A program made the translations under genes and the position numbers. From a virus, in IMG/VR virus record IMGVR_UViG_3300045988_151591, positions 34,841 to 98,840 of that record: DNA of 64,000 nucleotides; one strand, given 5' to 3'. Position 1 is the first letter of the stretch, and each line of letters starts with the position of its first letter. Positions 8,966-59,434 of this stretch are shown piece by piece. The notes under the pieces were generated by a model. The model was not told the origin of the DNA. It saw nothing but the letters and a program-made list of their open reading frames with translations, and ran no database searches.

Positions 8966-11900
8966 ATGGCTACAGCAAAGAAAACTCAAATCGTCATTAC
9001 TGCCAATGCCGCCGTCGCCAAAAAGGTGATGGAGGAGCTTCAGCAGCGCATTGACGGTATAAAACAGAAGATGGCTGCGCTCGACGTGACAACCAAGCAG
9101 GGCCAGCGCGAGTTTAACAAACTGAAGAAAGAATTGGTTTCGTATAACTCGGCCGTAACGCAGAATATCACAAACGAGGAACGGGTAAAACATGCCATTG
9201 ACAATCTAAACACAACTTCTCTCAAGGAGTTGCGCCGTGCGCTCGTCTCAGCAAAAAGCGTACTCGGAAAAACGTTTGCTGACGATCCGGGTTTGAAGAA
9301 AAAACAGCAGGATGTGCGAACCCTGCAAAATCAAATCGATAAACTCACTGGCTCGGTACACAAGCAGGGTGGAGCATGGCAGACAGCGATGAAGAACCTC
9401 ACGGCATACGTCGGATTGTTTGCAGTGTTCAATAAGGCGAAAGAACTTGTGACGGGTGTTATTCAAAAGAATCTCGATATGTCAGACTCTTTGGCGAATA
9501 TTCGCAAGGTCTCAGGCTTACTTCATCAGGATATTGACAAGATGGCGGTATCTTTGTCAAAAATTGATACCAGAACTTCTGTGCAGGAGCTGCAAAACAT
9601 CGCCTATGCTGGAGCTAAATTGGGTATTGGAGAGTATGGACCAGAAGGCTTGGAGTCTTTCGTGAAAGCGGCTAACCAAGTAAACGTGGCATTAAAAGAG
9701 GATTTGGGCGACGAAGCCCTCACTGCGCTGTCTAAGATTACCGAGGTTATGGGTCTTATCCCTAAGATGGGCGTAGAGCAGTCTATGCTTAAAACAGGTA
9801 GTGCCATCTTCAAATTGGCGTCCACTTCTACGGCCACGTCAAATAAGATAATCGATTTCAGTAATCGTCTCCTTGCTATGGGTAAGGTGGGTGCGCTTTC
9901 CACATCTGATATTCTCGCCCTTGGTGCAGCCGTTGACAGTATGGCTATCGAACCAGAAGTGGCAAGTACTGCTTTTACAAAGCTGATTACCGAGATACGT
10001 AAGGGCACATCATCTATCGAGAAGGATTTAGGCCTTGCAAAAGGTTCTTTAAAGTCTTTCCTTGAAGAGGGTAGGGGTATTGAGGCTATACAGACAATCT
10101 TCCATAAGATGCACGAGTCTGGGAATGTCTTTGCCCTGGATAGTCTTTTTAAGGATCTTGGTTCCGACGGCTCCAGACTTATAAAGGTAATGGTGACTAT
10201 GGCCGAGAAAGCTGATATGCTTGATAAAGCCGTATCAACCTCTCGCCAGGCTTTCGATGAAGGTATGGCTGTAACTCAGGAGTATAATATCCAGCAAGAC
10301 ACAGCGAAGGGTATCCTTGAGCGTGCCAACAATATGTGGAATAAATCGTTTGTAAATCCTGATGGTATTAATTCTGTTAAGCAGTTGTCGATGGCCTGGT
10401 ACGATTTGTCCCGCGCCCTGACAACATCCTCCGCTTCACAAAAAGCAGTTTTAGGTACGATAGATTTAATAGTCCTCTCCTTTAAAACGTTGATAGCATT
10501 ACTGCCTACTCTTGTCGGCTTTTTCATTGGAAAAGGTATTGCGATGGCTGCCATTCAACTTGTCAATATCAGCAAGGCTGTGTGGGCTTGGGTGGTTGCG
10601 CAAAAGGCTTTGAATTTGGCAATGTCGGCTAACGTATTCGGATTGGCTATTGGTGTTTTATCTACGCTTTACTCTTATTTTCAAAAGAATGCCAATGCGG
10701 CCCAGGATGCTGCCGATGCTGCCGATCATTTTTCAAAATCGTTAGCTGGAGCTAAATTTGAAGTCGGTCGTGCTACTGTTGAATTGGACGGTTACAAGCG
10801 GGCTATCGATGGTGCTAAAAAAGGAACAAAGGAAAGACAAGCCGCAATCGACCAGTTTAACAACAAATTTGGTTCTTATCTTTCTAAATTGATAACAGAG
10901 AAGTCTACTGCGAAGGATCTTGCAAAAGCTTATAACGAAGCTGCTTCAGCTATAGAACGAAAGGTTATGGCTCAAGCGTTAGAAAAGGATGAGCAACAAC
11001 ATATCGCACCAAAAGCAGGTAGAGAGACTCAACTGAAATACAATTACGACCAGTATGCAAAGAAGATTCGTTTAGGGGAGTATGGTGGCACATGGTTGAA
11101 AGCCATTGCTGATGATAATCTCAAAAAACATGGTTTAAATTATACTATAAGGGAGCTTATTAAGCGAAGTGGCGTTGGCAGTAATTATTCGGCCCAGCGT
11201 AGGAATGCTTTGATTGCTGCTATCATGAACACGAATGGTAGTCCGTCACGTATTTATGATTGGTTGACTACATCTAAAGGTGTATATGGTGAAAAGCACA
11301 TAGACAGAAACAACGCCGAGTTTACGGAACAAGAAAGACTGGTCGCCATGGGTGCCGCTTATCTCCGTCAACGTGCAGCGCGCGAAAAGTCTACGCGTGA
11401 AGTAGTCGAGAAATATGAGGATTATCCATATTTACTCGTTACGGAGAATCCTAACGGTGTTAATACCGGTGATGGTAACGGTAATGGCGGCAACGGTGGT
11501 GGTGGCAAAGGGGGCAGAAATACCGGTTCTGGTGGAAATCCTAACCATGAGGAAAAGAATGTCGCAAAAGACCGCGCCAATGCGCTTATCGCCAACATCA
11601 AGGCTTTCTATGAGGAACAGATGCGCAAATACCTGGAATGGGTGACTCAGATGAACGCCGATGGCGAAAAGATAAGCGAAGGCCAGCAGAAGGAGCAGAT
11701 GGACTATCTGCAATCGCAGATGGAACGTGCTCTTGGTACGGCTCGCCAGTCTATCGCCACTCTTGACAATGGCTGGAAAGAGTTCTATTCCCACATGGAT
11801 GAGAACGTAATGGTTTTCGACGATGAGACTTCTAAGCAACTGCTTGAGTCTATTGGAAAGGCGAATGTTGGTGAACTTCACAAGTTGTTCACAAAACTGT

Positions 11901-13816
11901 CCGGCGACCTCTCTCGCGAAAACAATAAGTCTCTCGCAGAAAACCTCGGCGCATTGCTCGACCAGATATTTGCCAACGGTTCAAAGGAATTGCGTGAGGC
12001 AGCAGAGAAGTTGCTTGCCCGTCAGCGTGAGATACAGAAGATTTTGAATGAGCACGACTATACGGGTGCAGTTGATCGTAATACCCGTAGTGAATTTGAC
12101 CGCTTAGGCTTTCTGCATCCAGCCAAGGATATTCGTGCAGACTCTCCCGAAGGTCTTGAAAAGATGAATACTGCTTTCGATAAGCTGACCACCAAGGCAC
12201 GCGAGTCTATCACCATATTATATAGCCTCAATCCTGAAAGCGAGAAATTTCAGAATCAGTTTCTTCAGTTCCTGTCTGTAGCTAATGATGGCTTCGATTT
12301 TTCAAAACTCACGGCGCAAAATCTCAAGGCTCTCTATCTCGAACTGATAAAGTATAACGACGAATACGAGTCGGCAAGCAAGAAGAGAGATGACGAGCGT
12401 AAGAAGCTGAATGATTACGGGTGGTCTAAAACTGATTATTATAAAGATTACCAAAGTAAGCTGCCTGGAATGGAACAGGAGGCGTCCATTAAGGGTAGCT
12501 ATCGCAATGCCGGTCAGCGTATGGGTATGGAGTCGGTGTCGGCTTCCGATCCAGAACTTGAACTGATGAAGGCTCGCATGGAGTTTGCACAGCAGTATTA
12601 CGCATTCCTCGAAGAGCACAACGCCACCGAGCAGCACCTTGCTGATGCCAGAAAGAGTATTATGTCAGCACAGGCCAACTATGCTCAAAAGCTCACGGGA
12701 GATATGTTCGAGCAGTACAATTCACTCCTTGCCTTCATGGGACCGTTGCAAACCTTTGGCGAGTCGGTGGGCGAAGCTTTCGCTACTATGACCCAAAGCG
12801 CTTCCGAAGGACGCAAGGCATTGAAAACAGCCTTTAAGCAGATGATAAAATCGTTTGCCACCAACTCCCTTCAGATGATCAGTCAACAGCAGATAGACCG
12901 TGCGCAGACCACGGCACACTATACGCAGTTGCTCCTCATGCAGCAGGCATTTGGTACAGCAAAGGTGCAGGGAGAGGTCGCCACTGGTACGGCAATGATT
13001 GGTGCGCAGCAAGCAACTAATTTGACCCAGGAACAGCTCGAAGGTGTTCACCAGCAAGTGATGGCAGCCCTTCGCTCGGCAGGCATCTTTGGATGGTGCG
13101 TCAGCACTCTTGGTCCTATTGCCGGTCCTATTGCTTATGGTGCAATGATGTCAATCCTCATGGGCTTGCTCAGTTTTGCTATCAGCAAGATAGGAGGCGA
13201 CAGTTCTAAAAATGCGACTGTCAAGGGTCAGAATACAAAGCTCGTTACAGGTATGCTCACCTACGACAGTGGTAACGTGCAAGACCTGAAACCTTTCGTC
13301 GGCAATGACGGTAGTCTCTATTGGGCAACCGAGGACGACAAACCGCACAACGGTGTGTCGCTCCTCACTCAGCCTACCGCCACTACCATCAACGGGCAAC
13401 CGTCCTTAGTAGCCGAGAATGGTCCTGAGTTAGTAATCGGTCGTGAAACCACGCAAGCCATGATGATGAACAATCCGGCACTCCTCAAGGCTCTCGTCAA
13501 CTACGACAGCAACTATTCAGGCAGACGTGCAGCAAGACGCGCATTTGACAATGGTAATGTCGGCGAGCTTGCGAGCGCAATGGGGGACGCAGCAGCGGGC
13601 TTTACAGCAGAAAATGGTAATCTTCTGTTGGGCGCACCAGCGGCCAACAATGTAATCGCTAACAACACAGCCAGCCAAGCCGCTCTCATGCAAGCCGTCA
13701 AGACCCTCCTCGACAGACTGAATGAGCCTATCTACGCAAAGATAGACATGTATGGCCGTGGCAATCTTTACGACAGTATGACGAAGGCCAATCAGTTTAT
13801 GAAAGGCAAGGGCTAA
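8966..13816 (+). CDS. tail tape-measure protein-like (1616 aa)
   Basis: Very long, coiled-coil-rich protein. Internal hydrophobic segments. Gly-rich 'GNGNGGNGGGGKGG' stretch. Confidence 0.6.
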   Translation: MATAKKTQIVITANAAVAKKVMEELQQRIDGIKQKMAALDVTTKQGQREFNKLKKELVSYNSAVTQNITNEERVKHAIDNLNTTSLKELRRALVSAKSVLGKTFADDPGLKKKQQDVRTLQNQIDKLTGSVHKQGGAWQTAMKNLTAYVGLFAVFNKAKELVTGVIQKNLDMSDSLANIRKVSGLLHQDIDKMAVSLSKIDTRTSVQELQNIAYAGAKLGIGEYGPEGLESFVKAANQVNVALKEDLGDEALTALSKITEVMGLIPKMGVEQSMLKTGSAIFKLASTSTATSNKIIDFSNRLLAMGKVGALSTSDILALGAAVDSMAIEPEVASTAFTKLITEIRKGTSSIEKDLGLAKGSLKSFLEEGRGIEAIQTIFHKMHESGNVFALDSLFKDLGSDGSRLIKVMVTMAEKADMLDKAVSTSRQAFDEGMAVTQEYNIQQDTAKGILERANNMWNKSFVNPDGINSVKQLSMAWYDLSRALTTSSASQKAVLGTIDLIVLSFKTLIALLPTLVGFFIGKGIAMAAIQLVNISKAVWAWVVAQKALNLAMSANVFGLAIGVLSTLYSYFQKNANAAQDAADAADHFSKSLAGAKFEVGRATVELDGYKRAIDGAKKGTKERQAAIDQFNNKFGSYLSKLITEKSTAKDLAKAYNEAASAIERKVMAQALEKDEQQHIAPKAGRETQLKYNYDQYAKKIRLGEYGGTWLKAIADDNLKKHGLNYTIRELIKRSGVGSNYSAQRRNALIAAIMNTNGSPSRIYDWLTTSKGVYGEKHIDRNNAEFTEQERLVAMGAAYLRQRAAREKSTREVVEKYEDYPYLLVTENPNGVNTGDGNGNGGNGGGGKGGRNTGSGGNPNHEEKNVAKDRANALIANIKAFYEEQMRKYLEWVTQMNADGEKISEGQQKEQMDYLQSQMERALGTARQSIATLDNGWKEFYSHMDENVMVFDDETSKQLLESIGKANVGELHKLFTKLSGDLSRENNKSLAENLGALLDQIFANGSKELREAAEKLLARQREIQKILNEHDYTGAVDRNTRSEFDRLGFLHPAKDIRADSPEGLEKMNTAFDKLTTKARESITILYSLNPESEKFQNQFLQFLSVANDGFDFSKLTAQNLKALYLELIKYNDEYESASKKRDDERKKLNDYGWSKTDYYKDYQSKLPGMEQEASIKGSYRNAGQRMGMESVSASDPELELMKARMEFAQQYYAFLEEHNATEQHLADARKSIMSAQANYAQKLTGDMFEQYNSLLAFMGPLQTFGESVGEAFATMTQSASEGRKALKTAFKQMIKSFATNSLQMISQQQIDRAQTTAHYTQLLLMQQAFGTAKVQGEVATGTAMIGAQQATNLTQEQLEGVHQQVMAALRSAGIFGWCVSTLGPIAGPIAYGAMMSILMGLLSFAISKIGGDSSKNATVKGQNTKLVTGMLTYDSGNVQDLKPFVGNDGSLYWATEDDKPHNGVSLLTQPTATTINGQPSLVAENGPELVIGRETTQAMMMNNPALLKALVNYDSNYSGRRAARRAFDNGNVGELASAMGDAAAGFTAENGNLLLGAPAANNVIANNTASQAALMQAVKTLLDRLNEPIYAKIDMYGRGNLYDSMTKANQFMKGKG

Positions 13817-20034: not shown

Positions 20035-21723
20035 ATGAAAGGTCTTTTTGAAATTATGACCAACAAGGAGTGGATGATCAACCCCGAGTTCGTACACGGA
20101 ATACGTAAGGCCTTAGAGCAGAACCTGAACACTCATGCTGCTTTCGAGAAGCCTCAGAAGACTTGCGGTTTTGTCACTGCTATAGACGAGAACGGATGCG
20201 TCTACTATCCCGAGGAATATCAGATCTCAGAGGATGGTAATCAGGTGAGAAGTCAGTGGGCTCTCAAAGATGATGATGCACAAAATTTTCCTTTTGTCTC
20301 TGTCCTTACAGTTGATGGTCCTATCACCCGCAATGGCGGCGGTTGCTCGTATGGTTCCGTCGATCATCGTAACATGATGATTAATGCAGCCAATCATCCT
20401 TTGTGTCGTGGTCATATCTTTATTATTGACACACCTGGCGGTACAGCATGGGCTAAGAATGATTATGAACAGGCCATCAATTACGCACGTTCACTTGGCC
20501 AGCCAGTTCTGTGTTTTATCGATGGCGACTGCTATTCTGCCGGTATGTATCTCGCCTCTCTCTGCGATGAGCGATATTACATGCACCCGAAGGACGGTGT
20601 AGGCTGCATCGGTGTGATGGGTGCTTTTTATACTGAGGCCGACGGCAGTACCAACAAGTTCACCAACGAGACTTATCACGAGATTTACGATCCGGAGTCT
20701 TATGACAAGAATCGCGAGTTCCGTGATATTGCCAACGACGGCAATACGAAGAAGTTCGTGGCAGAGTTGGCTGAACTGGGCGTCGAGTTCCGCAGAGATG
20801 TAAAGAAGGCTTGCCCGAAAGCTAAAAAGGAGCATCTCCATGGAAAGATATTCACAGCCGAAGAGGCAAAGGGCATTTTGGTGGATGGTCAATCTACTTT
20901 CCTTGACTGCATCCACCGCTGCTTCGATCTCTACAATGGTACAGCAAATCCTATCGAGAGAGAAATCACCACTGATGACCAAGGTACTGATACCGAAGGC
21001 ACAGAAAAAGAGCCTAAGAACGTCTCTACCCCAGCTACAGTAGCCAGTTCAGCACAAGAGCCAACGACCGCTCCATCTTCAAAAAAGGATAACAACAACA
21101 ATTTTAACCAAACTCATATTGATATGAAAAATTACCCATTGATTAGCGCTGCTTGTGGAATCAAGGAAGGCGAGATTGAAGTCAATGCAGAGGGCGCATT
21201 CATGAATATGCCATTGCTCGACTCTCTCGAAGCCAAGTTTTACACCAACGAGCAGGCTGTGGCCGATGCCAAGCAGAAAGCCACTACAGCAGAGCAAAAA
21301 CTCGCTGACCTTCAGGCTAAGTTTGATGCTCTTCAGGCAGAACACGACGCAGCTAAGACTCGTTCTGATGAAACGGCTGCAACTCTCGCCAAGAAGGACG
21401 AGGAGATAGCTGCCCTTACAACAAAGAAGAATGAGGAGATAGCTACTCTTACAACCGACAAAGCCAAGGTCGAAGAGGAACTGAAAGGCGCAAAGGAATC
21501 GCTCGCTACAGCCGAGCAGACCATTGCCGACAAGGACGCCCAGATAGCCGCCCTTACCGAAGAGGCTGGCAAGGAACCTGCGGCAGGAACTGCACCAGGT
21601 AACAACGGAGAAGGCGCACAGGTAACCGAACCTCATACAGCCTACCCCACTTGGAACCCTTCAGATCCTGTTGGCTCAAAGAAGGCTATCGAGAAGTATA
21701 AACGTGATAATGGTCTTCTCTAA
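20035..21723 (+). CDS. prohead serine protease (S49/ClpP family) fused to a coiled-coil scaffolding domain
   Basis: 'IIDTPGGTAW' and 'CYSAGMYLASLCD' are ClpP/SppA-like motifs. The C-terminal ~200 aa are coiled-coil heptad repeats ('EEIAALTTKKNEEIATLTTDKAKVEEELK'). Confidence 0.75.
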   Translation: MKGLFEIMTNKEWMINPEFVHGIRKALEQNLNTHAAFEKPQKTCGFVTAIDENGCVYYPEEYQISEDGNQVRSQWALKDDDAQNFPFVSVLTVDGPITRNGGGCSYGSVDHRNMMINAANHPLCRGHIFIIDTPGGTAWAKNDYEQAINYARSLGQPVLCFIDGDCYSAGMYLASLCDERYYMHPKDGVGCIGVMGAFYTEADGSTNKFTNETYHEIYDPESYDKNREFRDIANDGNTKKFVAELAELGVEFRRDVKKACPKAKKEHLHGKIFTAEEAKGILVDGQSTFLDCIHRCFDLYNGTANPIEREITTDDQGTDTEGTEKEPKNVSTPATVASSAQEPTTAPSSKKDNNNNFNQTHIDMKNYPLISAACGIKEGEIEVNAEGAFMNMPLLDSLEAKFYTNEQAVADAKQKATTAEQKLADLQAKFDALQAEHDAAKTRSDETAATLAKKDEEIAALTTKKNEEIATLTTDKAKVEEELKGAKESLATAEQTIADKDAQIAALTEEAGKEPAAGTAPGNNGEGAQVTEPHTAYPTWNPSDPVGSKKAIEKYKRDNGLL

Positions 21724-24113: not shown

Positions 24114-25022
24114 ATGGAACTTCGTCATTTGCGCTCATTTGTATATGTAGCCGAAACTTTATCGTTCAGTATTGCAGCCACGCGCTGTTGTGTCGCTCAG
24201 TCCGCCATCAGTCAACACATCAAGGCTCTTGAGGATGAACTGAGGTGCAAGTTGCTTATCCGCACCTCGCACAGCATTATGCTCACCGAGAGTGGCGAGG
24301 CGCTTTTGCCTCGCGCCAAGGAGATACTGAAGCAGACGGATGACTGCAAGGAGCAAATCAATGCGCTCAACAACTGCCTTGTGGGCGAGCTGAGGATAGG
24401 TGTAGGCTCTTTTATCGCACCTTACATTCGGATGGCGGCACTTATCTTCATGGAGCGATACCCGAATGTGAGAATCAACGCCGAGTTTGCCAAGGCAGCG
24501 AACTTGAACCACCTGTTGAGAAGCCACTCCATCGACCTCGCCTTCACTCTGAACTCTGCCTACAAGAATGAGGGTATCAAGTCAGAACCCTGTATTCCTT
24601 TCCGTATCTATGCGATGATGCGGGACACCCATCCCCTGGCCCGACTGGAAAAGGTGTCATACGAGGATTTGTTAAGGCACAACGTGATTATGCCCGATGT
24701 AGGCGAAAGGGTGTTCAATACCTTCCAGCAATATCTGAGATATGACTTGATGAAACTGAATGTAAAATGTATTGTGAGCGACCCCAACGAAGACCTTGCC
24801 ATCGTGGAAGAAACCCATTGTGTTACTTTCATGCCTAAACTTTATCTGAAGAGTCACCCCACCCTTACCGTCCGTCCCATCGTGGGGCTTGAGCACGACC
24901 TGATGAGCAATGCCCACTGGATGAAGGACGTGCCGATGAAGCGGTCAGCACAACTTTTTCTCGACATTGTGCGCAACGAAGCCATACCTTATATTAAAAC
25001 TCTTGAGGAAGCCATGCGATAA
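24114..25022 (+). CDS. LysR-family transcriptional regulator
   Basis: N-terminal HTH 'LRHLRSFVYVAETLSFSIAATRCCVAQSAISQHIKALEDELRCKLLIRTS'. The length and C-terminal domain fit the LysR family. Confidence 0.85.
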   Translation: MELRHLRSFVYVAETLSFSIAATRCCVAQSAISQHIKALEDELRCKLLIRTSHSIMLTESGEALLPRAKEILKQTDDCKEQINALNNCLVGELRIGVGSFIAPYIRMAALIFMERYPNVRINAEFAKAANLNHLLRSHSIDLAFTLNSAYKNEGIKSEPCIPFRIYAMMRDTHPLARLEKVSYEDLLRHNVIMPDVGERVFNTFQQYLRYDLMKLNVKCIVSDPNEDLAIVEETHCVTFMPKLYLKSHPTLTVRPIVGLEHDLMSNAHWMKDVPMKRSAQLFLDIVRNEAIPYIKTLEEAMR

Positions 25023-27894: not shown

Positions 27895-28449
27895 ATGGTA
27901 AAGATTGAACCTTTAGCTAAATTCATTCTCTCGTTTGAGGGAGGTTTCGTGAACGACCCGAAAGACCGTGGTGGCGCAACCAACAAGGGCGTGACCATCG
28001 GTACATGGCGGCAGCAGGGGTACGACAAGAACGGCGACGGACGGATAGACGTGCGCGACCTCCGACTTATCTCAGATGCTGACGCTACGGAAATCCTGCG
28101 CCGATGCTATTGGCGCCGATGCCGTGCCGACGAGATCAATGACCAGAGCATCGCCAACCTCCTTGTGGACTGGCTGTGGATCAGCGGTACGCCTGCCGTC
28201 ACCCTCACCCAAGCCATACTGGGTGTGAAAGCCGACGGCATCATGGGAAAGAACACCATGGCCGCCCTAAACCGACAGAACCCCGAAGCTTTCTTCTCGC
28301 GCCTCAAGGCTCGCCGCAAGTTGTACTACGAGCGGTTGGCGAAGAACAAACCGTCACAGAAGCGGTTCCTCGCCGGATGGCTTCGTCGGCTCGACGGCAT
28401 CCGATACGGCTCGCTCGTCGACAACCGGGGGAGAGAAATCACCTGGTAG
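27895..28449 (+). CDS. endolysin: GH108 lysozyme domain plus PG_binding_3-like domain
   Basis: 'FEGGFVNDPKDRGGATNKGVT' is the GH108 EGG..NDP.D.GG.T.G.T signature. 'DGIMGKNTMAALN' is the peptidoglycan-binding motif. Confidence 0.85.
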   Translation: MVKIEPLAKFILSFEGGFVNDPKDRGGATNKGVTIGTWRQQGYDKNGDGRIDVRDLRLISDADATEILRRCYWRRCRADEINDQSIANLLVDWLWISGTPAVTLTQAILGVKADGIMGKNTMAALNRQNPEAFFSRLKARRKLYYERLAKNKPSQKRFLAGWLRRLDGIRYGSLVDNRGREITW

Positions 28450-29771: not shown

Positions 29772-30912
29772 ATGAAATACGGACTACCTTACAAAGGAAG
29801 CAAAAACAAGTTGGCAGAGCGCATTGTGCGCCTCCTGCCCAAGCGCACGCACCTCGTAGATTTGTTCTGTGGTGGATGCGCCGTGAGCCATGCTGCCCTG
29901 CTTATGGGCAAGTATGAGCACATACATATCAACGACATCAACTGGATGTGTCCTACGCTATTCATTGATGCCCTTAACGGTAAGTACAATGACGAAAACC
30001 GATGGATTAGCCGTGAAGACTTCTTTCGTCTGAAGGACACTGACCCTTATGTGGCTGTAGTGTGGTCGTTTGGCAACAATCTGCGCGACTATCTTTATTC
30101 TAAAGAGATTGAGCCATTGAAGAAAGCCATACACTATGCCATATTCTTCAGCGACTATTCGCTTGGCAAAGAACTCGGTCACGACCTCTCGTTCATCGAC
30201 CCCATACAAGACCTTCAAAAGCGATACCTTGCCGTGAAGCATTACTTCAATAAGTTGGGTCACTTCCAGCAGCAATCGTTTGAGGGGGGGGCAGAATCAG
30301 CGGATGCAGCAGGAATCCTTCAGTCGCACTACCCGACTTGCCTCAATACAAATGGGGGGGTACTCAGAGGATGCAGTCAGCGGAAGCAAACGAAAGGCTC
30401 AATACATTTCGGAATATCATCCCTTGGAAAGGCTGTCAAATCCAGTCTTTCAAAAAAAAAAAAATACAAGCGACCCAGCGAGCTACAGCACAACGAAGGA
30501 CGAAACATCGTTGCATCGCTTGCAATATCGAGAACGGCAGCACAGTCTGCCCAGATATTCGGGGGGGCAGTTTCTACCTATTACGTCCTCTGTGCTTGAC
30601 TATGAAGAAGTCACGATACCCGAAGACAGCGTGATTTATTGCGACATTCCATACGAGGGTACAGACGGATATTTAGAAAAAGGCAAAGGAGGTTTCGACT
30701 ATGAACGATTCTATCAGTGGTGTGAGCGGCAAACGCAACCCGTATTCATATCCTCTTATCAAATACCCGAAGACCGCTTCGACTGCATAGAAGAGTTTAC
30801 CCATCGTTGCACCTTGGCTCAGAAAGACAACAACCTCGTGACGGAGCGCATCTTCGTTCCCAAGCATCAAGCCGAAAGAGGCAACCGCACCGTGCAGCTC
30901 ACGCTGTTCTGA
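29772..30912 (+). pseudogene. Dam-type N6-adenine methyltransferase, split across two frames by a ~300-bp homopolymer-rich insert
   Basis: N-terminal 'YKGSKNKLAERIVRLLP...LVDLFCGGCAV' is Dam motifs X/I. 'CDIPYEGT' is a DPPY-like motif IV in the 30280-30912 frame. Between them are G8, G8, A13 and G7 tracts, with no stop codons in two frames. Confidence 0.6.
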
Positions 30913-30970: not shown

Positions 30971-31061
30971 AACAAACGATGCCCATTGTTATATGCAAAC
31001 AATGCCCATTGTTTAACCACAACAATGCCCATTGTTGCATATAAACGATACCCATTGTTTT
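30971..31061. promoter_or_regulatory. array of 4 palindromic sites AACAATG-CC-CATTGTT
   Basis: Read directly at 30971, 30997, 31021 and 31044, upstream of the HU-like gene. The same motif occurs at 6172-6212. Confidence 0.55.
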
Positions 31062-31104: not shown

Positions 31105-31587
31105 ATGGCATTTTCATTAAAATTGAGCAAGTCGAAAGCCTATAACCCCTCCACCAAGGAGCAGGGCTTTCGCACCACCGTTAAGTCTAACGGCAAAGCA
31201 GACATGGACTCTTTGGTAGCGTCTGCAAGTAAGAACACCACCATGCACAAGGCCGAGCTCCGCATGGCTTTTGAGCTGATGCTTGACGCTATCGCCGAAG
31301 CGCTCACATCGGGAAAGAACGTCGAGCTCAAGGGTATCGGCAACATCGGTTTCTCATGCTCCGGCGCTTGGACCAAGACCGCCGAGGAGCAGACCAAGGT
31401 GGAGCACAAGATCGGTGTAGCCTTCTATCCAAGCAATGAGGTACACGCTGCCGTAGCCACAGCCAAGACATCGTGGACCAAGGATGGCGAGGGCGACGAG
31501 CCTACCACTCCCGGCACAGGCGACTCCGGCACCACGGGTGGCGGCGACCAGAAACCTGGTGGCAACCCTCCCGAGATTGAGTCGTAA
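31105..31587 (+). CDS. HU-like DNA-binding protein (Bacteroidetes HU-HIG type)
   Basis: 'AELRMAFELMLDAIAEALTSGKNVELKGIGNIGFSCSG' is an HU-fold-like segment. Gly/Thr-rich C-terminal tail ending '...GGGDQKPGGNPPEIES'. Confidence 0.5.
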   Translation: MAFSLKLSKSKAYNPSTKEQGFRTTVKSNGKADMDSLVASASKNTTMHKAELRMAFELMLDAIAEALTSGKNVELKGIGNIGFSCSGAWTKTAEEQTKVEHKIGVAFYPSNEVHAAVATAKTSWTKDGEGDEPTTPGTGDSGTTGGGDQKPGGNPPEIES

Positions 31588-34773: not shown

Positions 34774-35883
34774 ATGATACTTTCCACCAATCAAGAACTT
34801 CGGCTTATCCTGCCCAGCAATGCCGTGGACGATATAGCCAACCTGCAGGGCGTGCTCGACAACAGCGAGAAGGACTTCCTGCAGGACAAGTTGGGCAAGC
34901 CGCTCTACACACGGCTCTGCGAATACTACACCACCCTGGGCGGCGACGGCTTCTATCAGCAGAAGACCGACGGATCCTATGCCAAGAAACCATGGAGCGT
35001 CCTCCTCAACCTCGCCCAGCGCATGGTGGTCAACGACGCCATGGCGCGATACGCCTACCAGCAAATCCTTTCGGTCAACGGCGCAGGCGTCAACATCGCC
35101 TCCTCTACCGATTACGACCCCGCCACAGAGATACTCCTCGACAAGGGAGTGGCAGGATATAGGATGGAGGCCATGGTGTCGCTCAACAACCTCTTGAAAC
35201 TCCTTGAAAACTGGGCAGTCAGCATCAACACGCCAGCCGAAACAGCCGCCCCGAAAGACGGCAGCGCAAGTACAGAAGTACCAAAGGGCGAAAGTACAGA
35301 AGTACCTGACGACGGAAAATCCGACATACCACAGGACGAAAATGCCGAAGCCCATACAGCTATCGAGGAGATAGTGCTGTTGTGGCAGGAGAGCAAGTAC
35401 TACTATCTGCACCACGACCTCCTCTTTCCTACGTGCAGCGTCCTTGAGCAGTATCTTAGCGTGCACGACAACCGCGACAAGTTTATCCGTCTGTTGCCCG
35501 ACATCCGCTACGTACAGGACGAATACATAGCCGACGTGTTCGGCGACGAGCTCATCGACCGTCTTCAGCATGCCGACGACCGCGACAAACTCCTCCGTAA
35601 GGTGCGCCGACTGATGACCGCCTACCTCGTGGAGCGAACCACCGTCATCGCCTTTGACAAGGCTACCCGACTGTTGGCGCACAACGAGTCCATCTCGCTC
35701 CGCGATTCCGTCTATCGCCTCCTCAATGCCGAGAAGCAGGCTCAGGAAGCCGCCGATAGCAATGCCTCCTCCTCCACTTCCACCACGACCGCCGCTCCCT
35801 CATCATCCGCTGCAGACAAATCCGGCGGCTACGAGAATAACCAGGAGGGCGGCAAGATATTCGTCACACCACTCATGTTCTAA
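34774..35883 (+). CDS. hypothetical structural protein (369 aa)
   Basis: ORF with an acidic central region and a Ser/Thr-rich C-terminus. Confidence 0.5.
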   Translation: MILSTNQELRLILPSNAVDDIANLQGVLDNSEKDFLQDKLGKPLYTRLCEYYTTLGGDGFYQQKTDGSYAKKPWSVLLNLAQRMVVNDAMARYAYQQILSVNGAGVNIASSTDYDPATEILLDKGVAGYRMEAMVSLNNLLKLLENWAVSINTPAETAAPKDGSASTEVPKGESTEVPDDGKSDIPQDENAEAHTAIEEIVLLWQESKYYYLHHDLLFPTCSVLEQYLSVHDNRDKFIRLLPDIRYVQDEYIADVFGDELIDRLQHADDRDKLLRKVRRLMTAYLVERTTVIAFDKATRLLAHNESISLRDSVYRLLNAEKQAQEAADSNASSSTSTTTAAPSSSAADKSGGYENNQEGGKIFVTPLMF

Positions 35884-35913: not shown

Positions 35914-36990
35914 ATGAACAAAGAGCAAATCATTCAGATACTCACGCCGGCACTCAACACCCGAATGCTGACTGCCGAACAGAAAGAAGCCTTCGAGCAG
36001 GGACTGACACTGCTTGAAAGCGTGCCCAGCGCACAGGCTTTCGTGCGCGACTCGCATCGTTTCCGCGACTACCACCGCCGTGTGCGCCAGTTGATCACCA
36101 GCCTGCAGATTATCCCCATCCCCGAAATTGCCGAAGCCAAGCGCCACGTGGGCCGACCCACCAAGGAGGAGCAGGCACGATACAACGAACAGCAGAAGCA
36201 GAAAGCCCTCGACGAAGCCCGCCAGTCGCTCTTCCCCGAGGTGAAGCCCAACGTGGCCGTACAGCCACTCACCTATGGCGGTATCGTGGCCAACCCCAAC
36301 GGCGAGAGCATCGCCGCCACCATGCCCAACCTCGCACAGATACGTCCTTTCCTCAGTCCTGCCCTTCAACAGCGCGTCAATACCGTGCGCGACCTCCGCA
36401 ACGAGATGGCGAGCAAGGCCGAGCAAGCCAAGACGATGGCAGAAGCCAACGAGAAGTCGCAACAGCAGAACAAGGGCATCCTCTACACTGAAGCCGAGAT
36501 AGCGTTGCTCGCCACCCGTGCGACAGAGATAGAGAGCCACATCCTGCCCGATATTTACATGGCAGTGGACCGCGAAATGGGCGAAGTCTATCTCCGATTG
36601 AATCAGCGCAACGGCGACCCCGAATATATTGCCTATGTGGAAAAGACTTTCAGTTTGTCGCCACAGGAACTGCGTACCCAGCTCAAGCCCTTCTATGAGA
36701 AAGCACAAGAGCGCGACCCTCGTTTTGCCGTCAGCATAGCAGAGAAAATCGCTGCCGACCGACCCGAGGTGAAAGCCGCACGCGACAAGGCAGCCAAGCA
36801 CAAGGCCGAAGCTGATGCCATCATCAAGTATATCATCCGCAAGGACAAGCCAAGTACCAAGGCAAGGGTGAAGGGACTGAAGGAGCGTATCGACCGTTTG
36901 CGCCAGGAGTATGCCGACATCGTAACCGAAGACGAACTCACCGGCTACGAGGCCATCCTTACCAAGACCATCGCCGAAGCGGGAGTCTAA
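35914..36990 (+). CDS. hypothetical coiled-coil protein (358 aa)
   Basis: Lys/Glu/Ala-rich, scaffold-like. Confidence 0.5.
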   Translation: MNKEQIIQILTPALNTRMLTAEQKEAFEQGLTLLESVPSAQAFVRDSHRFRDYHRRVRQLITSLQIIPIPEIAEAKRHVGRPTKEEQARYNEQQKQKALDEARQSLFPEVKPNVAVQPLTYGGIVANPNGESIAATMPNLAQIRPFLSPALQQRVNTVRDLRNEMASKAEQAKTMAEANEKSQQQNKGILYTEAEIALLATRATEIESHILPDIYMAVDREMGEVYLRLNQRNGDPEYIAYVEKTFSLSPQELRTQLKPFYEKAQERDPRFAVSIAEKIAADRPEVKAARDKAAKHKAEADAIIKYIIRKDKPSTKARVKGLKERIDRLRQEYADIVTEDELTGYEAILTKTIAEAGV

Positions 36991-57037: not shown

Positions 57038-59434
57038 ATGAAAGCAACATTAAATGAGATTATCGAGAACTTAGTTAAAGTATTAACCGACAAGGCAGAG
57101 ACCGCACAGTATTACAGCGATAACGAACAATACACCGGCCTTTGTGGCTGGTGCGGTATCATGTCGCCAGAATCTCGCCCGGCATATATAAAGACCTTCG
57201 GCAAGGATACGACCGAGCAAGCCGAGGCCAAGGCCCGCGAGATCATCGCCGAAAAGGAAGCAGCACGCCAGCGCACGAAGTACGCACAGCACGCCAAGGA
57301 AGCCGACCGCCTCGAAGGTGTGCCCGCCGTTGGTGGTTTCTTTTGGGCAGACAATAGCGGCCTAAAGTGTGACGGAGGCCGCGGCCTATTCGAGGAGCTG
57401 CACGCCCTCAACTACTACACACACGCCGACGAAAAGCCCGCCCGCCTCTGTTGTGTCGAGCAAATTATAAAAGTATCGGAGGCCGATTTTTCCCGCCCAG
57501 AACTCGCCGACGAACTCGTAACACGTCACAACCTGCAGGGCTTCTGTCGTTCTGAGGACGTGGACGAGGAACACAACAAATATAACTACAACAACGAGGA
57601 ATGGGCGACCTTTTACACCGTCGGCGCTCTTGTGGTTGCGCCTTCGGGCAAATACTATCTTATAGACTCCGAGGGCTACGACTACGCGCGTTATATCTAC
57701 GTGCCGATTGAATGGCCCGTAATGTTCGCCGATGAGGTGGCGAGCATCAAGGCAGCCGAGGAAGCACGCAAGGCAGAGGAGGCGCGACAGGCAGCCGAGG
57801 AGAAGGCGCAGCGCCTCGCCGAATATCGCACGCGCTGCGCTAAGTGGCTGCCCCTCATGCGCAACGTGGAGGAGATGGAGCAGGACGGAAAAGCAACCGC
57901 CCGAAAGATTGACAACGCCCGAAAGGCGAATATATTGGCCATGTGCTCCGCCGCCTTCCCTGGCGTGAAGTTCTCCGTATCTGTTCGCCGTGGCTGGGGT
58001 GCCGATTTCGATTTAACATGGACCGACGGCCCCACGGTCGAGGAGTTCGAGGCTAAAACCGATCTCGATTTATTTTGCCGCAGTCGCGACACCTTCAACG
58101 GCTGGGACGATTCAACCGACATTATTTTCTCCGAGTTCTGCGAGTTCGCAGATCTGACCATGGGACGCAACGGCGGCGACATCAAGGCACGCCGCGAAAT
58201 GTCAGACGAGGCACGCGCCGCCCTATTGGCTGACATCTTCGCCACCGTTCCCGCCACCGACAGCCGCGACAAATACGGCTATACTAAGCCGTACACCTAC
58301 ACCGACAAGGAGGCCGAGGCAGTAGCCGCAGCCCTTGGCGTGGACGTGTTCGATATACTCATACAGGGATACGCCGAGACCGCCGACACCATCGCCCGCC
58401 GTGCCTGGGACAAACGCAGCTACACCAATACCACAACGCCAGAGCCTACCGACCCGAAGCCGGGCAAGGCTCAAGCAAAGGCGACAGAGCACACCGAAGC
58501 CGCACCCGCTCAGGATGCAGCACAGACCGCCGAAGCACCCGCCGAAGGCTTGCAGCTCGTAGCAACAGCCGAGGGCGTGGCAGTGATAGGCGACAGCCGC
58601 ACAACATACCGCAACCGAAAAGCCATCAAGGCGCACGGCGCGACCTGGAACAAGACCGCCCAACAGTGGCAGGCAAGCGAGCCCGAGGCCGTGGCACGCC
58701 TTCGCGAGTGGTTCGGGGTATCTGTTACCCCGACCGCCCCAGAGGCCGACACAGCCAACGAGAGCGACAGAAAAAAGGCTTTTTTCGTAATCTTTGCAGC
58801 GTGCGAAATTGGTGCGCAGGAATGGAACAAAAGCGGATATTATACAGGAGGAACCACTCAAGACTGCGAACCCTTCGAAGCTGTCGCACCGGAAGCCGTG
58901 ACAGCGTGGAAAGAAGCGGGGCAGCCTCTCAACCGCAACGAGTGCGCCCGCCTCTATGGCGAAGAATTAACCAAGGAGGCCAAGGACGCGCACACAGTTG
59001 CCAGACATCGCGCGAAATATTGCGAAGACTGGCGCGACGAACTCCGCGAGATATGGGGTATATATAAAGATCTGACAGCAACAGACCACACAACCGCAAA
59101 GACTTCCGCAGATGCTACGTTATACGAGCCCGCCGAAATCACGGCAACCGCACCGACCGACACCGCCGAGGACTTCGGCAGACTGACGCAAGCGGGGGAG
59201 CAGCCGGAAGGCTGCGGCAAGGTGTGGCAGTTTGAACGATGCACGGACGCCAACGGCCACGAATTGCACGAAATTCGCCGCGTGCCTTCTGGTTTCATGG
59301 TGTTTTTCAATGTGTGCGAAGCAACGGGCGGCGGTTGCTCTACGATGGTCGTATATCCCACATATTGCGAAGCCCTGGAGGTGCTGACCCACTGCCGACC
59401 TGGTGCACAACTGATTGCCCAGCCTGCGGCATAG
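57038..59434 (+). CDS. large polyvalent-like protein (798 aa) with KxxGAxWxxxxxxW motif
   Basis: 'TYRNRKAIKAHGATWNKTAQQWQ' resembles a plasmid primase-associated C-terminal motif. Modular, acidic. Confidence 0.45.
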   Translation: MKATLNEIIENLVKVLTDKAETAQYYSDNEQYTGLCGWCGIMSPESRPAYIKTFGKDTTEQAEAKAREIIAEKEAARQRTKYAQHAKEADRLEGVPAVGGFFWADNSGLKCDGGRGLFEELHALNYYTHADEKPARLCCVEQIIKVSEADFSRPELADELVTRHNLQGFCRSEDVDEEHNKYNYNNEEWATFYTVGALVVAPSGKYYLIDSEGYDYARYIYVPIEWPVMFADEVASIKAAEEARKAEEARQAAEEKAQRLAEYRTRCAKWLPLMRNVEEMEQDGKATARKIDNARKANILAMCSAAFPGVKFSVSVRRGWGADFDLTWTDGPTVEEFEAKTDLDLFCRSRDTFNGWDDSTDIIFSEFCEFADLTMGRNGGDIKARREMSDEARAALLADIFATVPATDSRDKYGYTKPYTYTDKEAEAVAAALGVDVFDILIQGYAETADTIARRAWDKRSYTNTTTPEPTDPKPGKAQAKATEHTEAAPAQDAAQTAEAPAEGLQLVATAEGVAVIGDSRTTYRNRKAIKAHGATWNKTAQQWQASEPEAVARLREWFGVSVTPTAPEADTANESDRKKAFFVIFAACEIGAQEWNKSGYYTGGTTQDCEPFEAVAPEAVTAWKEAGQPLNRNECARLYGEELTKEAKDAHTVARHRAKYCEDWRDELREIWGIYKDLTATDHTTAKTSADATLYEPAEITATAPTDTAEDFGRLTQAGEQPEGCGKVWQFERCTDANGHELHEIRRVPSGFMVFFNVCEATGGGCSTMVVYPTYCEALEVLTHCRPGAQLIAQPAA

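Follow-up and report, generated by a model that had tools for sequence, protein, structure and literature searches.

A putative hypermutable multi-tract contingency locus with a frame-neutral spacer in a Dam-like methyltransferase gene of human-gut phages

We describe a gene for an orphan D12/Dam-like N6-adenine methyltransferase which, in a 64,000-nucleotide (nt) stretch of a tailed-phage genome (positions 34,841 to 98,840 of the IMG/VR record IMGVR_UViG_3300045988_151591; henceforth the window), is split between two reading frames by a spacer with four long homopolymer tracts. With a probability that we place at about 0.7, its comparison with related genes points to a multi-tract hypermutable contingency locus, in which the enzyme would be switched ON and OFF through a spacer that is neutral to reading frame. 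The tracts differ in length at the DNA level between near-identical genomes, both halves of the gene are under purifying selection, and the segments between the tracts are used in all three frames. A first-pass annotation of the sequence had offered three options, namely phase-variable on/off switching through slippage at the tracts, a small inserted element or one resembling an intron, and homopolymer sequencing error; the comparative data strongly support the first of these. The key feature, which that annotation overlooked, is the openness of the spacer in three frames, by virtue of which several tracts would jointly constitute a single modulo-3 switch.

The window codes for a tape-measure protein, a head protease, a GH108 lysin and an HU-like protein (Table 1). 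A blastn search with the locus against annotated phage records returned no match, and a tblastn search of deposited phage genomes recovered only methylases of at most 35% identity from Lactococcus and Lau218 phages, with no cultured relative being found. Our first search collected 3,667 homologous proteins, and a scan of three public collections with the N-terminal half of the gene (N half) yielded about 85 distinct gene sequences, about 70 of which have tracts at homologous places. These relatives, cited below by locus numbers (L) or as database proteins (P), come from 92-107-kb contigs of human-gut metagenomes assembled with SPAdes from short Illumina reads, at coverages of up to 100-230x; their N halves are 81-99% identical, and every comparison made here is of one consensus assembly with another. 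The 184,950-nt contig ERZ808270 NODE-1 carries two identical copies of the gene (L145 and L148) 92.4 kb apart, probably because a genome of about 92 kb was assembled as a head-to-tail dimer. Both ends of the 99-kb contig IMGVR_UViG_3300029566_000010 lie inside the methylase gene.

A methyltransferase gene divided by a tract-bearing spacer

The two halves of the methyltransferase had been assigned to different frames from the outset, and this assignment holds: the N-part open reading frame (ORF), annotated at 29772-30599 in frame A with its stop codon at 30597-30599, matches the Pfam family PF02086, while the motif IV sequence CDIPY (30640-30654) lies in the C-part ORF (30280-30912) of frame B, displaced by +1. 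The N-part ORF opens with MKYGLPYKGSKNKL...DLFCGGCAV, and the N half comprises motif X, motif I (DLFCGGCAV), motif II (INDIN) and the helical/hairpin DNA-recognition region; the C-part ORF ends ...VIYCDIPYEGTDGY.... Being frameshifted, the window allele has no uninterrupted ORF that spans both halves; it is OFF, and its product is an N-terminal fragment of 275 amino acids (aa), for which an exact-product look-up found no record. In silico, the removal of one base or the addition of two at any one of the four tracts restores a full-length protein of 379 or 380 aa, each with a different spacer, and all other one- or two-base tract changes give a truncated product of 286-287 aa.

The tract lengths initially read as G8/G8/A13/G7 stand for the first, third and last tracts, while the second is a G7. 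These tracts, which code for Gly and Lys, are the sole G or C runs of at least 7 and the sole A run of more than 9 in the window, elsewhere in which there are only a single G6 and a single C6; this clustering of homopolymers is far beyond chance. The internal direct repeats noted earlier are confirmed as a 23-nt pair (G tract plus ..CAG.GGATGCAG; 30287-30309 and 30354-30376), 78% identical and 67 nt apart. The excess of about 100 codons over Dam is also borne out: motif IV would lie at about aa 290, as against 219 in tract-less relatives, and the spacer of a relative in the ON state (that is, with the catalytic half in frame) amounts to 95 residues modeled with low confidence. The first-pass annotation had rightly seen that the segment lacks stop codons, though in two frames only; in fact all three forward frames are free of TAA, TAG and TGA over 315 nt, the final stop trinucleotide ahead of the spacer being the TGA at 30281-30283, while the reverse strand of the same interval has 14. 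Dinucleotide shuffles of the spacer average 9.9 stops, and not one in 20,000 was stop-free.

Table 1. Features of the methyltransferase locus and of its surroundings in the window (positions are those of the window)
Feature	Coordinates	Strand	Remarks
N-terminal half of D12/Dam-like methyltransferase	29772..30281	+	frame A
Tract 1, G8	30284..30291	+	TTTGA just before; corresponding tract G6-G19 in relatives
Spacer segment 1, 62 nt	30292..30353	+	open in three frames
Tract 2, G7	30354..30360	+	begins copy 2 of the 23-nt direct repeat
Spacer segment 2, 91 nt	30361..30451	+	open in three frames
Tract 3, A13	30452..30464	+	A8-A15 in relatives
Spacer segment 3, 96 nt	30465..30560	+	open in three frames
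Tract 4, G7	30561..30567	+	G5-G12 in relatives
All-frame stop-free interval (frame-neutral spacer)	30282..30596	+	starts at tract 1, ends about 37 nt ahead of motif IV
C-terminal catalytic half	30568..30912	+	frame B, +1 relative to the N half; stop 30910-30912
Tape-measure protein	8966..13816
Head protease	20035..21723
LysR-type regulator	24114..25022		full length, HTH_1 + LysR_substrate
GH108 lysin	27895..28449
16-nt repeat AAAGGTAAAAAAGTAA	29679..29714		perfect, 2.2 copies
23-nt tandem array ACAAACAATGCCCATTGTTTAT	30972..31060		3.9 copies
HU-like protein	31105..31587

A Dam-like enzyme interrupted at its own linker

PF02086 (D12 MTase) matches aa 7-58 of the N-part ORF with 44.5 bits (E 2e-11; cut-off 22), and the ON relative P0002 scores 53.6 bits. 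The S-adenosylmethionine (AdoMet)-binding motif I (FxGxG) is represented by DLFCGGCAV at aa 30-38, where F32, G34 and G35 are invariant among 144 sequences, and the catalytic motif IV, (D/N)PP(Y/F), by the variant DIPY (30643-30654), where D290, P292 and Y293 are invariant; DIPY and DPPY alternate within the family. The structure was modeled on P0002, a database protein recovered by homolog search that is 95% identical to the window's N-part ORF. In the AlphaFold2 model (predicted template-modeling score 0.70) the predicted local distance difference test (pLDDT) exceeds 90 for residues 1-165 and about 261-367 and falls below 50 for the spacer residues 166-260. The top 25 Foldseek matches of this model in the PDB are all EcoDam, T4Dam, DpnM or Mcbe1, with a probability of 1.0 and target template-modeling scores of up to 0.59, at an identity to the solved Dam enzymes of only 13-16%. 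Because of this model and these fold matches, the two halves are predicted to make one Dam-like enzyme, in the order AdoMet region, recognition domain and catalytic region, with the spacer as a disordered loop on the surface, placed after the recognition region and before the strand leading into motif IV. The DNA-recognition hairpin (SFGNN..Y) is recognizable within the conserved N half. The enzyme is an orphan of the D12 Type II-like kind, encoded in a phage rather than in a chromosomal Type I or III restriction-modification system; no nuclease was recognized among its neighbors, which are an upstream ORF of 344 aa without a Pfam or PADLOC match and the downstream HU-like gene.

More distant members of the D12 subfamily that have no tracts carry (L-Q/E-S/R)n repeats at the position of the spacer, e.g., LQSLERLQSLQR..., with 3 to more than 30 triplet repeats in proteins of 274-432 aa. 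Among the tract-less relatives P0121-P0240 (relatives of L190), near-identical backbones differ solely in repeat number (391, 400, 406 and 409 aa), which suggests that this linker varies by in-frame changes in repeat number. The modules of the window clade keep remnants of the linker motif (RMQSAEANERL), and one frame of spacer segment 2 (TQRMQSAEANERLN) retains the ancestral RLQSLERL-type motif. Because of these remnants and the shared position in tract-less members, the spacer is best read, from sequence comparison, as the family's own variable linker, whose in-frame repeats were turned into frame-shifting homopolymer modules and tandemly duplicated. The two kinds of enzyme thus share the same conserved halves and a repetitive, length-variable linker at the same place, but in the tract-less subfamily the variation comes in units of three codons and alters length rather than frame.

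Tract lengths and reading frames diverge between near-identical genomes

Across the roughly 70 distinct tract-bearing relatives, each gene has 1-6 tracts, ranging from G5 to G19 and from A8 to A15, with the A tract present in nearly all of them. In a sister clade (L042, L044, L182, L183) C tracts occur together with an A tract, and a clade that is 70% identical (L029-L041) has no tracts and an intact ORF of 305 aa. We considered a G-quadruplex or another G-specific role of the DNA, which is unlikely given the coding-strand C tracts of the sister clade and loops of 60-100 nt. At the lower extreme, L004 and L166 have just one G tract, and L004 has lost everything between the first and the last tract, keeping a single G8.

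Measured against the N half, motif IV falls in frames 0, 1 and 2 in the proportions 26:22:21. The catalytic half is thus in frame in 26 of about 69 relatives, and 24 of these have an uninterrupted ORF, since L015 and L016 have an in-frame stop in the spacer. Accordingly bimodal are the lengths of the database proteins, which fall at about 252-309 aa (truncated) or 353-388 aa (full length).

The closest pairs localize the changes to the tracts. Over 4,000 nt, L017 and L018 (99.9% identical) show two substitutions and a single indel; the latter lies at tract 1, which is a G8 in one of them and a G7 in the other, and it places one allele in the ON state and the other in the OFF state. Two substitutions separate L147 from L009, whose indels are confined to one G tract of the spacer and one that lies 1.46 kb upstream; between L026 and L162 there are five substitutions, and indels occur in the A tract, in the final G tract and in a G tract of the upstream gene; and in L137, L138 and L186 the indels are exclusively in tracts. 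The A tract differs by 2-3 nt between nearly identical genomes, and the length of tract 4 differs between such genomes as well. In contrast, the set L012, L013 and L015, with short G6 tracts, shows no indels, and shorter runs near the tracts are stable between near-identical genomes. From these very few events, a tract would change, roughly, hundreds of times faster than an ordinary site. The gene therefore shows several hallmarks of a contingency locus: homopolymers enriched over the background within an ORF, length differences among them that change the frame, and ON and OFF alleles that persist under purifying selection.

Both halves are maintained around a spacer open in all frames

In each of the 42 OFF alleles in which it could be measured, the C-terminal half (C half) remains an intact ORF of 110-117 codons, as it is in ON alleles, and the N half is intact in all OFF alleles but one. 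The ratio of nonsynonymous to synonymous substitution rates (omega) of the N half is about 0.06-0.08 in ON-ON, ON-OFF and OFF-OFF pairs alike, and the medians for the C half are 0.08-0.15; for the latter only medians are usable, as the ratio of means is inflated by misaligned pairs. By these measures the gene appears to be kept up in OFF alleles rather than decaying. L015 and L016 have nonsense substitutions in the spacer, at gene positions 571 and 589, despite in-frame tracts, and L015 differs from L012 by three substitutions in 4 kb, one of which creates the stop; the gene is therefore sometimes knocked out by ordinary mutation.

In 70 loci, the region from the first to the last tract holds only 22 stop trinucleotides in 15,870 nt, mostly in one short module of one sub-clade, as against one per 22.7 nt in the flanking N half and one per 35 nt in the C half. 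In relatives the stop-free stretch typically extends from 3 nt ahead of tract 1 to 37 nt short of motif IV. About 15% of random spacer substitutions would make a stop, whereas none of at least 96 observed in segment 3 did so. Substitutions follow a marked third-position periodicity in both halves (p = 2e-28 for the N half and 7e-6 for the C half), of which segment 3 shows little or nothing (p = 0.16 and 0.049). Among relatives, the distance between the A tract and the last G tract is unconstrained modulo 3 (27:21:10), whereas 51 of 58 loci have 66 nt separating the last tract from motif IV.

Among the ON proteins of close relatives, every one of the three inter-tract segments is found translated in all three frames, and the many combinations include A-A-A, B-A-A, A-A-B, B-A-C, B-B-A, A-C-B, A-B-C and C-C-A; segment 1 alone is translated as AESADAAG..., QNQRMQQESF... 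or GRISGC.... Taken with the loss of periodicity, this suggests that the amino-acid sequence of the spacer does not matter and that the spacer is frame-neutral. We also entertained one native frame per segment: the motifs QxF before tracts and RMQSxEAxERL after them suggest an ancestral order A, B, C, A, B, but neither the periodicity nor the lengths modulo 3 indicate a present constraint.

A proposed mechanism and its alternatives

We propose that slipped-strand mispairing during replication of the phage DNA often alters the tract lengths and that, because no frame is closed within the spacer, only the sum of these lengths modulo 3 would decide whether the catalytic half is translated. The tracts would then act as one additive ON/OFF switch, in which any tract can compensate for a slip at any other. 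From the comparisons of genomes we infer what this would entail for the phage: a switching rate within one population that is multiplied by the number of tracts, a methylation phenotype at the enzyme's target site that differs between ON and OFF progeny, and a selective benefit in the form of bet-hedging of virion DNA methylation. Progeny with methylated DNA would resist hosts that restrict unmethylated sites, and unmethylated progeny would escape methylation-dependent restriction.

Several observations weigh against this proposal. The ON state accounts for about 38% of the consensus sequences, essentially the one-third expected from neutral length drift, with no sign of selection for either state; the same proportion is equally expected if slippage at the level of expression renders the genotype irrelevant. 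Some of the differences of one base, especially among A11-A15, could be assembly or Illumina homopolymer errors, and of about 20 contig ends in the vicinity, 4 coincide exactly with a spacer tract (L019, L043, L171, L215; the 99-kb contig with both ends in the gene is among them), which fits sequencing trouble and heterogeneity equally well. The window has other stretches that are stop-free in all frames, namely 34836-35159 (324 nt, longer than that of the spacer and within T-poor structural genes), 36243-36488 (246 nt) and 58324-58559 (236 nt). Zero stops were attained for these in just 1-9 of 20,000 dinucleotide shuffles; they lie in T-poor genes with long antisense ORFs, have no homopolymer tracts, and are probably an effect of codon usage. 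Because such T-poor parts of the window score similarly, the shuffle statistic is not specific by itself, and it is therefore the comparative evidence that carries the argument. Finally, Prevotella is probably the host of this group of phages, with the binning of several relatives into Prevotella metagenome-assembled genomes as the sole ground for the assignment.

An alternative that we regard as unlikely, though the strongest of those considered, is recoding at the level of expression, whereby slippage of RNA polymerase, sliding of ribosomes, or both, at A13 and the G runs would yield all three frames. About one-third of the product would then be full-length whatever the genotype, amounting to weak constitutive expression, and the DNA length differences would be a near-neutral drift. 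A runs of at least nine are established sites of transcriptional slippage, as in dnaX of Thermus thermophilus, whose A9 gives rise to mRNAs in three frames (PMC1088944). By analogy the A13 of the window, which is long enough to be slippery, should likewise place the downstream sequence in three frames at the RNA level, and both the near-universal presence of the A tract and the 26:22:21 frame distribution are as this alternative, with its neutrality of the genotype, would have it; a spacer open in all frames would also maximize productive slipped transcripts. However, dnaX has one conserved run of fixed length with defined products, and programmed sites normally hold tract length and frame relation fixed, whereas here the tracts range over A8-A15 and G5-G19 and the frames vary between genomes. 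G and C runs are poorer templates for slippage than A and T runs. L004 and L166 have a single G tract and nothing else, and the single G tracts in the neighboring methylase of relatives (see below), where no compensation is possible, resemble plain ON/OFF switching. Moreover, slippage by the RNA polymerase of Bacteroidota is an assumption. Recoding can nevertheless coexist with DNA-level switching as leakiness of the OFF alleles. Still less probable, in our estimation, is that the frame combinations (up to 3^(n-1)) serve to produce combinatorial isoforms, i.e., ON enzymes differing in activity, processivity, partner binding or site preference. The many distinct ON spacer combinations among close relatives, the range of 1 to 6 modules and the placement of the spacer between the DNA-recognition and catalytic halves are all compatible with such isoforms, but the spacer is predicted to be disordered (pLDDT <50), shows no frame-specific constraint and can be almost wholly deleted, as in L004 with its one remaining tract. 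In addition, the recognition hairpin lies outside it, in the conserved N half, and at the same place the tract-less subfamily accommodates anywhere from 3 to more than 30 LQS/LER repeats.

Long homopolymers are error-prone, the window allele is frameshifted, its exact product is not on record elsewhere, and contigs often break at the tracts, all of which could be taken as signs of sequencing or assembly error or of a dying pseudogene. We hold this to be very improbable: the same tract layout recurs in about 70 distinct sequences from independent SPAdes/Illumina assemblies, the indels between near-identical genomes are confined to the tracts while shorter runs close by do not vary, OFF alleles retain two intact halves subject to purifying selection, and stops are purged from all frames, selection signatures that neither errors nor decay can yield. 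Sequencing error, as proposed in the first-pass annotation, hence fails as a general explanation. Its other suggestion, that the ~300 nt are an intron, an intein or a small mobile insert removed to restore a normal Dam, draws on the excess of about 70-110 codons over relatives or Dam and on the internal direct repeats. We give it practically no credence, as the check for a self-splicing fold was negative: an Rfam scan of the spacer region gave no relevant match at E <= 1, and the spacer's fold is not unusually stable (z = -1.27). Likewise, no ORF resembles a homing endonuclease or an intein, ON relatives translate the region as part of the protein, its boundaries and length vary continuously among relatives, and its modules keep the RLQSLERL motif of the family's own linker, from which the spacer appears to derive.

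Comparison with known switching systems

The closest parallel to slippage-driven switching of this methyltransferase is the A-run contingency locus in agt, the gene for the alpha-glucosyltransferase of phage T2, described in T2/T4 phages in relation to the TgvAB and McrBC defenses (Gomez, Barrick & Waters, bioRxiv 2025, PMC12633550). In both cases a phage DNA-modification enzyme is, or would be, toggled by homopolymer slippage of one base within its ORF, with a trade-off between defenses that attack modified and unmodified DNA. However, agt is a single-frame gene with ordinary short A runs, in which a slip creates a null allele that reverts at the same site, whereas the present locus has 1-6 long tracts in an all-frame-open spacer that would compensate for one another, and its enzyme is a methyltransferase of uncultured gut phages known from sequences alone. 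A methylase gene with a polyG tract is also mentioned in the Bordetella phages BPP-1, BMP-1 and BIP-1 (Liu et al. 2004, as cited in PMC12633550); according to the citing text this was a single tract, noted but not studied.

Fletchervirus phages of Campylobacter (Sorensen et al., Cell Rep 2021; cited in PMC12823448 and PMC12633550) have, in the accounts given by the citing papers, hypermutable polyG tracts of G7-G11 in their genes, which generate ON/OFF subpopulations within a phage stock. As described there, the tracts lie in receptor-binding proteins and alter adsorption rather than DNA modification. To our knowledge there is one tract per gene in these phages, and we know of no description of a frame-neutral spacer in them. 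The bacterial phasevarions, i.e., the Type III mod and Type I hsd genes of Haemophilus, Neisseria, Helicobacter and Streptococcus suis (e.g., PMC6265453, PMC7383803), offer another likeness, in that slippage of simple-sequence repeats within a methyltransferase ORF makes methylation randomly and reversibly ON or OFF. They differ in being components of chromosomal restriction-modification systems that act as epigenetic regulators of host genes, and their ORFs usually contain a single repeat tract close to the 5' end, the alternative frames being closed by stops; the gene described here codes for an orphan D12/Dam-like phage enzyme and has several mid-gene tracts. We found no paper describing a multi-tract frame-neutral architecture in a literature search whose coverage of journals was incomplete.

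Other putatively switchable genes and features of the genomic neighborhood

In many relatives the gene directly upstream codes for a second methylase of the N6_N4_Mtase family (PF01555, E 4e-31; L162:1709-2479, tract near 2320), which has a G7-G9 tract between the HPTQKP and GSGTT motifs. The same gene is found in L026, L012-L016, L021, L022, L158, L168 and L210, at about -180 relative to the start of the Dam-like gene. This methylase is ON (in frame) in L162, with G7, and OFF in the 99.75% identical L026, with G9; the window has no PF01555 methylase gene. Relatives further encode a PAPS-reductase-family enzyme (PF01507, E 1e-17; L138:172-1392) with a weak BrxP-like PADLOC match, whose gene has up to three G7-G10 tracts (at about 365, 1013 and 1072 in L138; also in L005). 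A tract of the form ACTATGATA[CT]G7-10 is present in L012, L017, L147 and L009, being G10 in one and G8 in the other of the near-identical L147 and L009. Homopolymer switching thus seems to target several genes of the DNA-modification type in this group of phages.

The palindrome content of the window suggests strong restriction-site avoidance, i.e., restriction pressure. Under a second-order Markov model CTAG is expected 81 times in the window and is not observed at all, while the relatives have 41 CTAG sites in 377 kb. GATC is the second most avoided 4-mer palindrome of the window, with an observed/expected ratio of 0.36, and GGCC and CCGG are depleted as well (0.46 each); the avoidance of GATC gives a hint, only a suggestive one, that the putative enzyme has the GATC specificity of Dam proper.

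The gap between the methylase stop and the HU-like gene contains the array of 23-nt units listed in Table 1, each of which has the inverted motif CAATG...CATTG; it looks like a set of putative operator or binding sites. The 16-nt repeat lies in the 100-nt gap just upstream of the methylase start codon, and the gene for the LysR-type regulator lies a few genes upstream of the lysin.

Conclusions

We present a gene architecture that appears purpose-built for switching, with several tracts, a disordered spacer and the purging of stops from every frame. In practical terms, gene callers split or truncate such genes (about 250-300 aa versus 353-388 aa) and assemblers break contigs at them. Phage contingency loci have been recognized only recently, as in the receptor-binding proteins of Campylobacter phages and agt of T2, and the present locus would extend the idea to DNA methylation in very common uncultured gut phages.

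We tentatively raise the further possibility, as yet the less probable side of the question, that an abundant group of human-gut phages, probably of Prevotella, runs a multi-gene form of epigenetic bet-hedging, in which the Dam-like methylase, the neighboring N6_N4 methylase and the PAPS-reductase-family enzyme are switched independently, with the dedicated all-frame spacer serving as a modulo-3 counter. More speculative still is the notion that different spacer frames might give functionally distinct enzymes. If such multi-gene switching is true, each burst would hold virions with different modification patterns. The locus offers a concrete and testable case of a phage that may hedge between the restriction of unmethylated DNA and methylation-dependent restriction.

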